A stretch of DNA of 61,254 nt from Octopus sinensis (lineage: Eukaryota), in NCBI RefSeq assembly GCF_006345805.1, contig NW_021832406.1:1-61254 (forward strand), given 5' to 3'. Position 1 is the first letter of the stretch. Every line of letters begins with the position of its first letter. Positions 2,674 to 61,089 of the stretch are shown here, piece after piece. Below the pieces are notes generated by a model, which did not search any database, was not told the DNA's origin, and saw nothing but the letters and a program-made list of their open reading frames with translations. The position numbers and the translations under genes are program-made.

Positions 2674-4011
2674 ATATATATTATATATATATATATATGC
2701 ATATGTATGTATGTATATCTATTTCTATAGCAATCGATTCAAATTACATTTAAATAACCCACAATGTATGAGAAGTATTTCACTCATAATTGCACAATTA
2801 CACATAAAGAAGTTTCTATGCAAACGTATCTGCACACACGAGCAGGGCTATATAAACATATACAAGCAAACACATACACATACTTACACGCGCATAAATA
2901 CACATAAAACCATATATATATATACATATATTCGTGTAAAATAATGTGCTGCATATTGTTTCATAAATTGAACATCTGTCTATTCCTGTCTATTGATAGA
3001 AATATGCATTGTGGCGAGGCGTTTTTAATTGATCCTATAAGTGTATGTATACATGCATGTGGCTATACATGTATGTATGCATGAATATATATGCATGTAT
3101 GCATGAATATGTATGTATGTATGTAGGCTGGTAGGAATTATACATGCATTATCTATGCATATATATATATATATACTTATTATGCAAAGTTGTACCCAAT
3201 GCTACTGGTATCATGCAACCCAGTACAACCTGTAGGAGGATCAGGTTGAGCGTGACTAAACCGGCACCTCGCTAGGTTAGCCTTGTATGGTTAGAGTTGC
3301 TACTGACCCAGCAAGTCAGAAACAAAAATAAATCCAGCTTAGGGTGAATGCCTAACAAGCAATAGTGTGTGGGATACAGAGATAGGATACAGAGATAGTG
3401 AAAGACCATTTTGGTGGGTGATGAACGACTAGTTCTTGTCACAGAGTTAAGTCAGACTAGATGTCACTAATTTCCAATAATGGAGGGGGTGACCTATCTG
3501 CTTTACCCAACTGGTTTATAGTTGAGGTCAAGAAGATAAATACTAAGTGAGTACATATTAATAAAAAAAAAATCAAAGTTTAGGTGGTCTCCGACAGACA
3601 AAACTTCGGGAATTTTCCGCAGCTGGATTGAGGTACGACTTATCAAGTAATATTCTTTCCTTTGTGTCTCTTTCAGTAGAGGCGCACTACTAATATTGCT
3701 ATAAAGTTCAAATGTACACACCTTCAATGGCAATCATGCACCTTGAATTTTTGCACTGATACTTATTCGGATGTTCTGATGTCATGCGACTCTACGACGT
3801 CGATGAAACACTGCTGTTTCATGTGTGAGGACACATGAAACTCGTGGGGTCGTGATTCTTTAGTCGCTGGTGGGTTTGTGCTCTTTACTGCTTGTACTCT
3901 TTCACATGTATAGTCATCCAAGAATCTACGACTAAAGAAAATGGTCAAAAATACCACAATTGGGCAAGATGGGTTACATGGCACATGCATGTATGAATGT
4001 ATGTATGTATG

Positions 4012-5908: not shown

Positions 5909-7113
5909 GTGGCATTGCGATGGGTACCAAGGCTCACCCGTCCTTGCGAACCTCATAATGGGTTACTTCGAATTGTCACTCTGAAATATCAAGCCAGAAA
6001 TTTGGACATGTTTTCCACACCTACCTAATGGAAAACTGGAAAAGTTATTTAGATGATTGTTTCATCATATGGAAAAACCTTATGAAAAACTCCTGGAATT
6101 CAAAACCATACTAAACAACATACATCCCAACATCCAATTCACTATGGAATTAGCAACATCATCTCCCATTCCTTGATCTCCTAATTATAAAAACACCTAA
6201 GAACCAAATCATAACAGACATCTACCACAAACCTACAGACTCACAACAATACCCCTCTTTAGTTCATGCCACACCCAACACACCAAGACAAATATCCCTT
6301 TCATTTAGCTAAAAGGGTATGCACCATTGTCTCGGATCCAAAAACACGAGAAATACGCCTTCAAGACCTCAAAAAAACACTATTACAAACGTCAAATCCC
6401 TCCACCCTTATAGAGTATGGAATAAAACGCGCCAAAGAACTAGACAACACTACACTGAAAACCACCCAACCTAACACCACACACAACCTCAAAATACTTC
6501 CATACATTTCCACCCCAACCCCCAAAATATCGAAGCATACACCACAATCATACAAAACCTCAGTCTACTGTCAACAGACCCAAAAATGAAAAACATTATA
6601 ATACACACAAAATCCTCAAATGCAAAAGGCAACACAATCTTAAAAAAAAACTCTGACAAATGCCAAACTTCACACACCACATCCACCCCCAACAGTAAAA
6701 AATTTGCACGCTCAAACTGTGGTACCTGCCCCTTTCTACTTGAAGGCTCTGAATTTACCTTCAAACAAGGTACGAAGTTTAAAATCAAGACTAACTTCTC
6801 CTGTTCCTCCGAGAACCTTATCTACGTTCTCACATGCGCTGGTTTGCCAACATAATTATGTTGGACAAACGAGTCTCCCGTTACGTAAACGAAACGAGTA
6901 ACGGTGCATAAAGAACAAATAAATCTCCCGGAATACCGACAAATTCCACTGAGTGACCACTTAGACTCATGTGCTAAAGACTTTAACCCAAATTCTTCTA
7001 TATATTCCCCTTCTACCAATGTAAAGACGGGATCACCACACAGGAGAGATTAACAAGGAGAATCTCTTTATTGAAAAATTCCAAACACAACTTAATATGC
7101 AAACTCCTCGTTG
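5909..7113 (+). mobile_element. Penelope-like retroelement, 5'-truncated and frameshifted (RT + GIY-YIG endonuclease)
   Basis: Conceptual translation gives GIAMGT, YLDDCFIIW, PFLD, TDIYHKPTDSQQY, then a CGTC linker, CSSENLIYVLTC..YVGQT (GIY-YIG) and FIEKFQTQLN near the stop. Confidence 0.92.
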
Positions 7114-7321
7114 ATCAAACTTCCTTTCTCTACCTCACTCTTCATGGATGGACTAACACAAATATATAAAGATACCATGCATTCATCACTTCAAGCTAAA
7201 ACTTATATTCTTTAAATATCATTTTTACTATTGTTGTGTTATTACTATCATTTTTATTATAAATGATATGACAATTTGAAATGCAATTGCCTATGCAGAT
7301 TTATTATTTTATTATTTTTTT

Positions 7322-12371: not shown

Positions 12372-12484
12372 TACAGGGTTGCAGTGAATAAATTGTCGTC
12401 TAAATTACGTAAAATGTAAATAACACTGACATCTCATTTTAACAGATATAGTTACATCTTAAAATACTAAAGAGTAAATTTACA
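12372..12484 (-). mobile_element. terminal fragment of a mariner-like (DD37D/maT-type) transposon
   Basis: Similar to 46793-46925 (CAGGGT..GTGAATAAATTGTCGTCTAAATTA..AATAACACTGACATCTCATTTTAACAGATAT). Confidence 0.75.
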
Positions 12485-12688
12485 TTTCACGGATATTTTC
12501 CCTCATCTTGTTTGTTGTTAACACAACGTTTCGGCTGATATATCCTCCAGCCTTCATCAGGAGTTTTGGGGAAGTTTCGAACCTGGGTTCTAATTCCTAA
12601 GGTATTTTTCGATGTTGTTGTTGTTATTATTAATATTATTATTCGGGTCACTGCCTGGAATCGAACTCGGAATATTGGGGTTAGTAGC
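12479..12688 (-). mobile_element. tRNA-head + hammerhead ribozyme non-autonomous element (HHR-SINE), 5'-truncated copy
   Basis: Collinear with both arms at 60175-60780: B box GAGTTCGATTCC, (AAT/AAC)n linker, ATCGAAAAATACCTTAGGAAT, hammerhead, AACAACAAACAAGATGAGG. Confidence 0.85.
12520..12565 (-). ncRNA. minimal type I hammerhead ribozyme motif
   Basis: Minus strand reads AACTC-CTGATGA-A-GGCTG-GAGGATATAT-CAGCC-GAAAC-GTT-GTGTT. Core intact, one mismatch in helix I. Confidence 0.75.
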
Positions 12689-12698
12689 TTAAGTGATT

Positions 12699-13061
12699 TT
12701 GGTACATTATTTGGTACATTAATTGGTTTAATAAAATATTCTTTTCTATCCTAGGCACAAGGCCCGAAATTTTGGGGGAGGGTCCAGTCGATTAGATCGA
12801 CCCCAGTAAACAACTGATACTTAAATTATCGACCCTGAAAGGATGAAAGGCAAAGTCGACCTCGGCGGAATTTGGCTTTAGAAACAGCACCACTAAAACC
12901 AACTATGGCTGCGATATGATGATAACTCAGGCGATAATTTAAGTGTCAGTTGTTTACTGGGGTCGATCTAATCGACTGGCCCCTCCCCCAAAATTTCGGG
13001 CTTTGTGCCTAGGTTAAAAAAGAATATTTTATAAAACCAATTAATGTACCAAATAATGTAC

Positions 13062-13063
<2 letters not shown>
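12699..13063. repeat. inverted duplication (~133-bp arms) containing family M SINE 3' ends
   Basis: 12699-12831 is the reverse complement of 12931-13063 with few mismatches. Confidence 0.9.
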
Positions 13064-52502: not shown

Positions 52503-53895
52503 TAAGGCGGCGAGCTGGCAGAAACGTTAGCACGCCGGGCGAAATGCTTAGCGGTATTTCGTCTGCCGCTACGTTCTGAGTTCAAATTCCGCCGAGGTCG
52601 ACTTTGTCTTTCATCCATTCGGGGTCGATAAATTAAGTACCAGTTACGTACTGGGTCGATGTAATCGACTTAATCCGATGTAATCTGTCCTTGTTTGTCC
52701 CTTCTGTGTTTAGCCCCTTGTGGGTAATAAAGAAATAAGAATCGTTTGCATGCCAGGCGAAATGCTTAGCGGTATTTCGACTGTCATTACGTTCTGAGTT
52801 CAAATTCCGCCGAGGTCGACTTTGCCTTTCATCCATTCGGGGTCGATAAATTAAGTACCAGTTACGTACTGGGTCGATGTAATCGACTTAATCCGATGTA
52901 ATCTGTCCTTGTTTGTCCTCTCTGTGTTTAGACCCTTGTGGGTAGTAAAGAAATAGGTATTTCGTCTGTCTTTACATTCTGAGTTCAAATTCGCCGAGGT
53001 CGACTTTGCCTTTCATCCATTCGGGGTCGATAAATTAAGTACCAGTTACGTACTGGGTCGATGTAATCGACTTAATCCGATGTAATCTGTCCTTGTTTGT
53101 CTCCCCTATGTTTATCCCCTTGTGGGTAATAAAGAAATAAGTAACGTTAGCCCGCCGGGCGAAATGCTTAGCGGTATTTCGACTGTCTTTATGTTCTAAG
53201 TTCAAATTCCGCCGAGGTCGACTTTGTCTTTCATCCATTCGGGGTCGATATAAATTAAGTACCAGTTACGTACTGGGTCGATGTAATCGACTTAATCCGA
53301 TGTAATCTGTCCTTGTTTGTCTCCCCTATGTTTATCCCCTTGTGGGTAATAAAGAAATAAGTAACGTTAGCCCGCCGGGCGAAATGCTTAGCGGTATTTC
53401 GTCTGCCGTTACGTTCTGAGTTCAAATTCCGCCGAGGTCGACTTTGCCTTTCATCCTTTCGGGGTCGATAAATTAAGTACCAGTTACGCACTGGGGTCGA
53501 AGTAATCGACTTAATCCGTTTGTATGTCCTTGTTTGTCCTCTCTGTGTTTAGACCCTTGTGGGTAGTAAAGAAATAGGTATTTCGTCTGTCTTTACATTC
53601 TGAGTTCAAATTCCGCCGAGGTCGACTTTACCTTTTATCCTTTCGGGGTCGATAAATTAAGTAACAGTTGCGCACTGGGGTCAATATAATCGACTTAATC
53701 CCTTTGTCTGTCCTTGTTTGTCTCCCCTATGTTTATCCCCTTGTGGGTAATAAAGAAATAAGTAACGTTAGCCCGCCGGGCGAAATGCTTAGCGGTATTT
53801 CGACTGTCTTTATGTTCTAAGTTCAAATTCCGCCGAAGTCGATCTAATCCCTCTCCCAAAATTTCAGGCCTTGTGCCTAGATTAGAAAAGAATTA
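52503..53895 (+). repeat. tandem array of seven family M SINE units with ~620-bp higher-order period
   Basis: Units start at about 52503, 52739, 52957, 53141, 53361, 53577 and 53762, each with a B-box-like GTTCAAATT and the Meta-like core. Confidence 0.92.
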
Positions 53896-58543: not shown

Positions 58544-60221
58544 GATTAAGAGAGAGATAGACAGAGATGAGAGAGAGAGGTGAGAGAGAGAGAGAAAGCG
58601 AGAAAGAGGCATACATACAAAAAGCCATAAAGATAGATAAGTAGATAGAAAGATAAGTAGTTCGTTAAATGGATGGATACATGGGTACATAGATATATAG
58701 TGATACATCCACAGATAGAAGCCATATAGAAAGATGGTATGTAGATTGAATGATAGATAGGTAGATGAATTTCAGAGATAGACGGTAGACGTATAGTTTG
58801 ATATATGGATAGGAAGACATGGATAGGAAGACAGGGATAGGAAGACAGGCAGATGAAAAGTAGGCAGATAGAGGGTTATATAGATAAAGAGATAGAAACG
58901 TCACTGATATAATGACCTGTATGACAGAAGTACAGAGACAGCAAGATACATTGATAGATTATTGGCACAATCAAGGAGTGAAGGATTTATTCAGTATAAG
59001 GGATAGAGATGTAAGTTTATTGGAAGCTGAATACGCTATTAGCACTTGATCATCTGCCGTTCATGTAGCGGTTAGCGAAGTTTCCCGTAACAAATTTATA
59101 CTTACCAACGAATTACCTACTTACCTACTTGCCTACCTACCCACCTAAAAGGAGGGGTATATATATTTTTTTATGCTGGAAAGCATTTATATACATTGGA
59201 AAGGTTACCTTCTTCAAGACGATAAATGATCCCAAATAATATACAGTTTGACGGAGAGAAGTCACTCCCAGAAATATGCAGACTGTGATGATTGTATGTA
59301 TCCATGCAGGCACATAATTAACATATATGTATAAAATATTCAAATGCACACATAAAAACAGAAAATATATGTTAACACTTATTTAAACTGGTACATATGA
59401 ATACAAAGGGTTTTTTCGCTATTCGAATTTCAGGCATGGAAATCGTATTTACATATTCAAAATGTTACGCTCTAGTTTGTAATAATCAGTCATATTTAGT
59501 CTATCAATTATTATGCGGTTATCGTTCTTACAGGTTTGTCCATTATTATTAATGAAGCTGTTGTAGTATATTCGTCTTGCTTGCAACTCCGAAAAATCAT
59601 TCAATATGAATGAATTTGACAACCTGTACTAGAATAGGATCTCACTTTTCGCATTGTGTAGGCATGCATCTTGCGTAATGATACTACATTTTCCTGCAAC
59701 ACATTACGGACACATCTCAGACACATTTACTTAAGGTGTCACAAAAGCTATTATGTCCATTCTATATTTATGTTAACATTTTTCTCTTTTACGAATCAAA
59801 TAAGAGGTTGTATTTCTTTTATGTATCTTGCGGAATGTGTTCATATGGTATATTTGGGACAGTATTAAATGTTCGTTGCTCCAATGGAATTGGTAGTTTT
59901 TTAAAATTATTTCTTAATTTAAAAATTACATGTTTACATTTTTGGTATAGTACATTTGAATATATTTATAACTAAAGCCTGTATATTACAAGCTACTTTG
60001 CTAATTATTTTCTTGATGGCATGCTTTTGATCTCTTTTGTCTCTGTAGATAAATTTTGCATTGTTTCTGTTAAAGAGCAGACGGAACTTATGGTCAATTG
60101 TAAAATGTAGAGGCATTAGTAATAACAAAAAATCTTCCCCACATTCGGCGGTACGTTCAGACAAAAAAATAGGTATATTATTTACAATTGACGTATATTT
60201 GTCCTCATCTTGTTTGTTGGT

Positions 60222-60267
60222 AACACAACATTTCCGCTGATATACCCTCCAGCCTTCATCAGATGTC
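60222..60267 (-). ncRNA. hammerhead ribozyme motif, two substitutions
   Basis: Minus strand reads GACAT-CTGATGA-A-GGCTG..CAGCG-GAAAT-GTT-GTGTT. Confidence 0.65.
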
Positions 60268-60520
60268 TTGGGGAAATTTCGAACCTGGAATTTCATTCCT
60301 AAGGTATTTTTCGATGTTGTTGTTGTTGTTGTTGTTGCTCTTCTTCTTCTTCTTCTTCTTCTTCTTCTCTTCTTCTTCTTCTTCTTCTTCTTCTTCGTTC
60401 TTTCTTCTTCTTCTCTTCTTCTTATTCTTCTTCTTCTTCTTCTTCTTCTTCTTTTCTTCTTCTTCTTCTTCTTCTTCTTCTTCTTCTTCTTCTTCTTCTT
60501 CTTCTTCTCCTTCTTCTTCA

Positions 60521-60590
60521 GGTCACTGCCTGGAATCGAACTCGGAACCTTGGGGTTAGTAGCCCCCGCTCTTCACCACTTAGCCATATG
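60521..60590 (-). promoter_or_regulatory. tRNA-like head with Pol III A and B boxes
   Basis: Minus strand has TGGCTAAGTGG (A box), a GGGG-CTACTAA-CCCC anticodon-like arm and GAGTTCGATTCC (B box). Confidence 0.75.
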
Positions 60591-60655
60591 CTCGTGGGTA
60601 TATGGCGTAGTGGTTAATAACAACATCGAAAAATACCTTAGGAATGAGAACCCAA

Positions 60656-60701
60656 GACACCTGATGAGGGCTGGAGGGTATATCAGCCGAAACGTTGTGT
60701 T
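60656..60701 (+). ncRNA. minimal type I hammerhead ribozyme motif, intact
   Basis: GACAC-CTGATGA-G-GGCTG-GAGGGTATAT-CAGCC-GAAAC-GTT-GTGTT. Helix I GACAC/GTGTT, helix II GGCTG/CAGCC, palindromic AACGTT in place of helix III. Confidence 0.82.
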
Positions 60702-61089
60702 AACAACAAACAAGATGAGGACAAATATCCGTCAATAGTAAATAATGAAAATAATTCCTCATCTCTTAAATATAGAACAGAAAAATAGGTTTAGCCAAAT
60801 TATCTTGTTTCATGATTCCATTGGGATTTTGTTTAGTTTCTTATGCAGGAACGGTTATGTTTCCTTCCTTACATCCCGATACTTATTTACTGCTTCATTA
60901 CATGGTTTTTAGTTTATCTGCATTTAGACATCCTAAAGGAATATAGAAAGATAGGGATATATTGAATATATCAAAAATGGATTGCAGTTTTTAAACAACG
61001 TATCGTTACATACACGCGCACACACACACACACACACACAAACAAACACACACACACACACACACACCACGCACAAACAACAACGACAG

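Follow-up and report, generated by a model that had tools for sequence, protein, structure and literature searches.

The window analysed, a stretch of 61,254 nucleotides of Octopus sinensis DNA (contig NW_021832406.1 of assembly GCF_006345805.1), contains close to its right-hand end two facing arms, 60175-60593 (−) and 60596-60780 (+), which form a single inverted insertion with a 10-bp target-site duplication on each side. A third, separate arm lies at 12478-12688 (−). The features of both loci are collected in Table 1. All three homologous arms reported by a first-pass annotation of this DNA were present in the window sequence, and its description of their layout was borne out: the tRNA-like head is complete only in the inverted arm, and the hammerhead core with helices I and II is intact in the sense arm and mutated in the core in the inverted one. 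The complete head has an A-to-B box spacing of 33 nt and the loop CTACTAA. The sense-arm hammerhead contains GAAAC-GTT, with a palindromic AACGTT where helix III would be. The ORF frame of the family is disrupted in the window copy by a 17-nt deletion, and the statement that the element lacks an ORF stands for this copy; it does not stand for the family, where a Penelope-like element (PLE) ORF has its first codons in the hammerhead and tail.

Table 1. Features of the insertion at 60165-60790 and of the separate arm at 12478-12688, in window positions.
Feature	Position	Strand	Remark
Left target-site duplication, 10 bp	60165..60174	+	same sequence again at 60781-60790
Inverted arm, hammerhead-bearing body positions 1-142, core mutated, without tail	60175..60318	-	
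Inverted arm, expanded trinucleotide linker (GAA/CAA)n	60319..60517	-	sequence
Inverted arm, complete tRNA-like head; A box 60576-60586, B box 60532-60542	60518..60593	-	
2-nt axis of the head-to-head inversion, loop of a native short hairpin at the 5′ edge of the head	60594..60595		
Sense arm, head positions 1-22 (60596-60617), internal deletion, linker remnant	60596..60621	+	sequence
ATG opening the ORF frame of the family	60644..60646	+	putative start codon
Minimal type I hammerhead	60656..60701	+	predicted cut after 60696
Hammerhead helix I	60656-60660/60697-60701	+	
Hammerhead core CTGATGA, intact	60661-60667	+	followed by one extra purine
Hammerhead helix II	60669-60673/60684-60688	+	
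One-sided tail of ~25 nt, body positions 152-176	60756..60780	+	N-terminal ORF coding sequence in full-length copies
Right target-site duplication	60781..60790	+	
Separate 5′-truncated copy: head 31-76, linker, body 1-139, without tail	12478..12688	-	

Other repeats are found in the same window. Directly upstream of the 12478-12688 arm, 12700-12831 and 12932-13063 form a fold-back pair of a different abundant repeat, which also occurs at 88-176, 15287, 32450 and 36500 and as a tandem run at 52583-53893. Positions 5911-7300 (+) hold a 5′-truncated copy of another PLE family with a Neptune-like linker, 97% identical to many copies in the genome searched (G000, 2.7 Gb); copies of this family terminate in (TA)n and contain a motif that resembles a hammerhead but has a variant core.

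Across eight sequences, 87% of the cells of the hammerhead helices were paired (slid controls 19-50%) and compensatory changes were seen in 4 of 10 pairs, the set being small and related. The minimal type I hammerhead proposed earlier was supported by compensatory helix II changes with respect to three older relatives. These (L121-L123) are old and present in few copies, with 64-70% identity to the hammerhead body, and no head or ORF was seen beside them. An Rfam search of the arms gave no hammerhead match, and the core pattern was intact in only 11 of 52 aligned arms. Non-CpG mismatch within copies was 3.0% in the core and 4.3% in the flanks, a comparison which is uninformative under neutral decay. 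Cleavage by the hammerhead, which is predicted from sequence, probably requires a dimer or the help of protein, and the ribozyme probably does not set the ends of the element.

Search of G000 with the body revealed many dispersed copies, mostly 3-11% from the consensus, which decay neutrally with loss of CpG (CpG sites mismatch at 18%). Copy number was estimated from 80 blind 10-kb stretches of G000 taken at round coordinates (799,700 bases), 8 of which contained the family; this corresponds to about 27,000 loci (Poisson 95% interval about 12,000-54,000). A search with the head alone gave no match, its words being probably too common, and head-only copies are thus left out of the counts. The linkage of head and hammerhead was confirmed in other genomic copies, the body lying within 900 nt in 81 of 90 arms with a near-complete 3′ end of the head. 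The sequencing runs holding the family carry five species labels, and none of those returned by the run search was on record as RNA.

The 5′ ends of 99 head-bearing arms fell at −7 to +5 in 53 cases, within head positions 6-76 in 35 and upstream in 11. The 3′ ends formed two classes about 25 nt apart, at body position ~150-151 and at the end of the tail, a distance shorter than the 30-40 nt quoted for PLEs. Divergent, head-to-head pairs were found at 47 of 85 loci picked with the body and at 4 of 8 blind loci. Target-site duplications, about 10-14 bp long in the family, reached at least 8 nt at 20 of 31 loci among the two-arm loci to which this count is restricted (shuffled pairs: mean 0.8, maximum 4). 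The long perfect inversions, ten in number, share one axis, the 2-nt loop of the native hairpin at the 5′ edge of the head, so that the hairpin alone could produce the pile-up of 5′ ends; this fixed axis fits fold-back priming by a cDNA ending at that edge. Directly upstream of many head-start arms lies an unrelated flank or a deleted partner. Heavy 5′ truncation and inverted pseudo-LTRs (pLTRs) are known for PLE insertions (PMC8557442), and an inverted arm, a one-sided tail and target-site duplications together are the PLE footprint published there. The occurrence of these three traits in family copies supports the earlier proposal of mobilisation by PLE machinery.

Upstream of the head, a common sequence was present at five of the first 30 loci, and at one of them, L012, it extended to the end of an endonuclease coding region. 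Through these shared 5′ flanks an ORF-bearing element was found, the autonomous PLE with the same pLTR that the first-pass annotation had suggested looking for. Its order is ORF stop, 29 nt, head, (AAT/AAC)n, ATG, hammerhead, tail, and the rest of a ~2.5-kb ORF for reverse transcriptase (RT) and endonuclease. Among loci picked with the endonuclease the head starts 29 nt past the stop codon in 29 of 30 (three being duplicates of one insertion), and the first head bases were visible by eye in the thirtieth. Among those picked with the ORF start, several of them duplicates, the body lies directly upstream in 26 of 30 and reads straight into the ORF. Near full-length copies with the order pLTR-ORF-pLTR were obtained (L179 and L287), both broken, as was every full-length copy seen. 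The repeat is the pLTR, head included, of an autonomous Penelope/Poseidon-type element and not a stand-alone SINE.

The ATG at body position 23 opens a frame which runs through hammerhead and tail into the ORF and provides about its first 50 codons. In an intact relative of 847 amino acids (P0005), the N-terminus can be aligned with the body frame at 44% identity over 277 amino acids. An intron at the tail had been considered and was dropped, since the open frame from the ATG matches P0005. The reverse transcriptase gave an RVT_1 match (E 6e-8). The C-terminal domain is 59% identical to that of P0005 and is assigned to GIY-YIG by homology, PF01541 being present on some homologues; the Pfam GIY-YIG model itself stayed below threshold, with no match on L179 and E 0.23 on P0005. 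By eye, from translations compared with the Cys-rich linker of L077, the linker between RT and endonuclease has no zinc finger of the Neptune/Nematis type. A Zn-finger-like linker separates Neptune and Nematis from Penelope/Poseidon (PMC8557442), and the linker therefore points to the Penelope/Poseidon clade, the tree containing no named Poseidon reference.

In a Pfam GIY-YIG search of G000, at least three other PLE families were recovered, none of them with the body within 1.5 kb. In a third PLE family (L124-L148), which we take to be Nematis-like, the 3′ UTR is long and rich in microsatellites, and a motif resembling a hammerhead, its core a variant one, is present.

That the short units form a separate non-autonomous family, as had been supposed, did not hold up: the whole unit, including the head, is the autonomous pLTR, with neither an age nor robust diagnostic sites of its own. 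Head divergence was 4.7% in head-start copies and 4.4% in endonuclease-linked copies, and no robust diagnostic site or age gap was found between these two groups. One hammerhead position differed between them (7 of 17 vs 2 of 40), a difference which fails multiple testing, the short copies having been picked with queries bearing the other base. The head sits in the 3′ UTR of the ORF and is not the true 5′ end of the element in every copy: of six ORF-bearing insertions which reach it, three start there and three continue into the upstream endonuclease end. L408, L414 and L422 are head-start copies reading on into the ORF. Large internal deletions in L408, L414, L417, L423 and L431 fuse the first 300-900 nt of the ORF to the 3′ end, and these copies resemble non-autonomous deletion derivatives; many ORF-bearing copies are of this kind. 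In DNA contigs as in RNA reads, pLTR sequence is over 100 times as frequent as sequence of the ORF 5′ part, and the ORF was present at none of the eight blind-sampled loci. The leader weakly resembles the inverted head (shuffle P 0.009).

The A box of the head matches the consensus quoted in PMC8969392 at 11 of 11 positions and the B box at 10 of 11, both lying near the 5′ end of the unit at the spacing given above. ARAGORN found no tRNA in the arms, and in Rfam the head of the 60175-60593 arm gave a sub-threshold tRNA match only (15.9 bits, E 1.1). The head has no tRNA fold now; compared with 32 distinct tRNAs, it matches Arg, Ala and Cys tRNAs at 46-47 of 73 positions.

Runs of T are the stop signal of RNA polymerase III (Pol III), which normally makes only short non-coding RNAs. 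No TTTT was present in three near full-length copies of 2.4-2.6 kb each, and four partial copies had one each, at different places; taken together, the ORF copies (31.4 kb) contained 8 sporadic TTTT runs. Against a codon-aware null which keeps the protein and the third-position base use of the element, 0 TTTT were observed in 794 codons where 5.7 were expected (P about 0.003). Four copies had 0, 0, 0 and 1 with 5.2-5.9 expected, these being descendants of one master and not independent. Phe codons were shifted to TTC (T:C ratios of 6:14 and 4:14) compared with the other T/C codons, which favour T (85:73 and 68:61; Fisher P 0.06 and 0.02). The T-runs of three further PLE families in G000 (five copies) agreed with their nulls. 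A-runs in the tRNA-headed family were also 12-30% below the null, which therefore overestimates runs somewhat, and with runs of five T's the test had no power. The A and B boxes, together with a coding strand free of T-run terminators, suggest that the head is likely read by Pol III.

The same pair of traits was looked for in metagenomic relatives. A first metagenome scan found none; 79 were subsequently collected, of which the 66 with at least 300 aligned codons were used for the T-run test. L330, a distant relative, had the largest T-run deficit of the 66 (1 observed, 6.9 expected) and, among relatives with a scorable 3′ flank, scored highest for A/B boxes in the 400 nt that follow the ORF, with the order A/B boxes, (AAT)n, hammerhead. 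Two TTTT per unit lie shortly after its hammerhead, which counts against Pol III read-through. The other 65 relatives, many of them near-copies, showed no deficit when pooled (313 TTTT observed, 263 expected), and at least 3 runs were present in each of the 26 whose expected number was 4.5 or higher. L334 and L344 had no T-runs with about 3 expected and yet have no A/B boxes, which argues against the pairing of boxes and depletion. The tree of the relatives came from a quick search only, with L330 on a long branch in an unsettled position, so that one and two origins of the head are indistinguishable.

L330 itself (positions 2740-3250; JGI1357J11328_10009043) is a perfect tandem Poseidon-type element with A/B boxes, (AAT)n and hammerhead in the pLTR and a T-run-poor ORF. 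A histone-3′-like stem-loop follows the hammerhead (E 0.15). It looks intact and young and is better suited for testing than the G000 family, which has decayed. In the group L334 and L342-L344 the aligned ORF has no TTTT and A/B boxes are absent; the 3′ UTRs of L342-L344 are T-rich.

Transcription was inspected in about 6% of each of three RNA-seq runs, whose species label is shared with some of the family holders and which possibly come from another species. The repeat was covered equally on both strands, and 66-80% of the examined repeat reads continue into unrelated sequence. RNA ends did not accumulate at the cut site or anywhere else in these three standard runs, which are not a test for circles. 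The signal is passive transcription of old copies and is silent on Pol III.

We favour, with some confidence, the reading that this PLE has a pLTR with a tRNA-derived A/B-box head in the 3′ UTR, the head likely driving Pol III transcription of the short unit as well as of the coding element. More tentatively, at a level where we would neither assert nor dismiss it, the PLE may be transcribed end to end by Pol III from its own pLTR, its own SINE arising as a by-product of internal RT initiation, a design that L330 would share. The Pol III model draws on the pile-up of 5′ ends at the head, the absence of TTTT from the ORF and the same pair of traits in L330. Pol III would start a few bases upstream of the head in the upstream pLTR and, meeting no terminator, would proceed through the ORF into the next pLTR. 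The protein of the element would nick the target DNA, and reverse transcription would begin internally at body positions ~151 and ~174; internal RT start sites have been demonstrated for Anolis PAc (PMC11167929). Initiation in the first pLTR would give a cDNA of head, linker and body halted at the 5′ end of the RNA, and hence abundant SINE-like stubs, and initiation in the last pLTR would give ORF-bearing copies, mostly 5′-truncated. The cDNA end would fold back on the hairpin at the 5′ edge of the head and prime the inverted arm. Solo stubs, retaining promoter and RT start site, could be remobilised in trans as true SINEs. For the translation of an uncapped Pol III RNA the model gives no explanation.

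The pile-up at the head could also be due to stalling of the RT and fold-back at the hairpin in an ordinary Pol II-transcribed PLE with an inactive tRNA or SINE remnant acquired by the 3′ UTR of its master; the short copies would then be plain 5′ truncations. This agrees with the heavy truncation and inverted pLTRs of PLE insertions (PMC8557442), with the turning of all long perfect inversions about the native hairpin, with the equal age of short and long copies and with an RNA-seq signal of passive transcription only. We nevertheless hold it unlikely, because it leaves unexplained the lack of TTTT over 2.4-2.6 kb, the Phe shift to TTC and the recurrence of the trait pair in L330; the unrelated flank or deleted partner directly upstream of many head-start arms also speaks against it. 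Nearest to the first-pass annotation is an arrangement in which Pol II makes the ORF RNA and the head is a Pol III promoter for the short unit alone, amplified in trans as a PLE-dependent SINE that either arose from the autonomous pLTR or was recaptured by it. The large excess of pLTR over ORF 5′ sequence and the lack of the ORF at the blind loci would suit it, as would the resemblance of the leader to the inverted head, such as a captured SINE-type junction might leave, and the hammerhead position that differs between the groups. The purge of T-runs, however, spans the whole ORF and would be needless for a short SINE, the differing position has the statistical and query bias already described, and L408, L414 and L422 start at the head and read on into the ORF; we regard this arrangement as quite unlikely.

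A non-LTR retrozyme spreading through circular RNAs cut at the hammerhead, which had been suggested as well, is very improbable. The minimal type I hammerhead is present and retrozymes are proposed derivatives of PLEs (bioRxiv 10.64898/2026.07.22.740005), but no head-to-tail array of the short unit cut at the ribozyme occurred among the 85 body-picked and 8 blind loci, the repeats being head-to-head, and the 5′ ends gather at the head and not at the cleavage site.

Abundant tRNA-headed short repeats of octopus, the SINEs OK, OR1 and OR2, were reportedly described by Ohshima and Okada in 1994. The present unit resembles them in tRNA head, abundance and similar size, a likeness by description only; OR2 has been cited as a CORE SINE (PMC4758252). 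Like Anolis PAc and other endonuclease-bearing (EN+) Penelope/Poseidon PLEs, the element has a single ORF with RT and C-terminal endonuclease and no Zn-finger linker (PMC11167929, PMC8557442); with Anolis PAc it shares a hammerhead overlapping the ORF start, an inverted 5′ arm and a one-sided tail that is flanked within the ORF by two RT start sites (PMC11167929). Unlike the EN+ elements of these two sources, it has a pLTR with a tRNA-derived A/B-box head and a coding strand without TTTT. Neither trait was found in the portions consulted of Frangieh et al. 2024 (PMC11167929) or Craig et al. 2021 (PMC8557442), the latter mentioning tRNA there for selenocysteine only. A Pol III-type promoter followed by a hammerhead is known from SMalpha and Sjalpha of Schistosoma (Weinberg et al. 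2019, PMC6765202), which are non-autonomous, often tandem, and have a canonical ribozyme freeing monomers; the G000 unit differs in being the pLTR of an autonomous element with a minimal ribozyme that does not set the ends. The TRIMp3 elements Cassandra, Helenus and Ajax likewise have a Pol III promoter derived from a small RNA within the terminal repeat (Kojima 2024, PMC10886601). They are non-autonomous LTR elements whose autonomous partners must use Pol II, whereas in the G000 family the autonomous element itself bears the promoter. Metazoan non-LTR retrozymes are also short hammerhead-bearing repeats tied to PLE pLTRs (PMC7229834; bioRxiv 10.64898/2026.07.22.740005), and the G000 family differs from them in the lack of head-to-tail arrays and of ribozyme-defined ends; a word search of the main text of both sources, as far as available, gave no tRNA head. 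The main text of PMC13343379 mentions neither tRNA nor Pol III. No tRNA-headed autonomous PLE was met in the literature searched, mostly at surface level; such consensuses may be present in supplements. In the sources consulted the nearest precedents are the schistosome SINE-like elements and TRIMp3, both non-autonomous (PMC6765202, PMC10886601). The short unit may well already be catalogued as a repeat.

By definition, a SINE is transcribed by Pol III and parasitises a partner that Pol II transcribes. In the present family it is the autonomous element that carries the tRNA-type promoter, and the 2.5 kb of its coding strand look suited to read-through by Pol III. If this is true, Pol III makes a retrotransposon mRNA, which would raise a testable question on the translation of uncapped RNA, and a SINE could arise directly from its own partner. 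It would also provide a promoter for PLEs, about whose transcription little is known, and a reason to suspect PLE stubs behind tens of thousands of the 'SINEs' annotated in such genomes.
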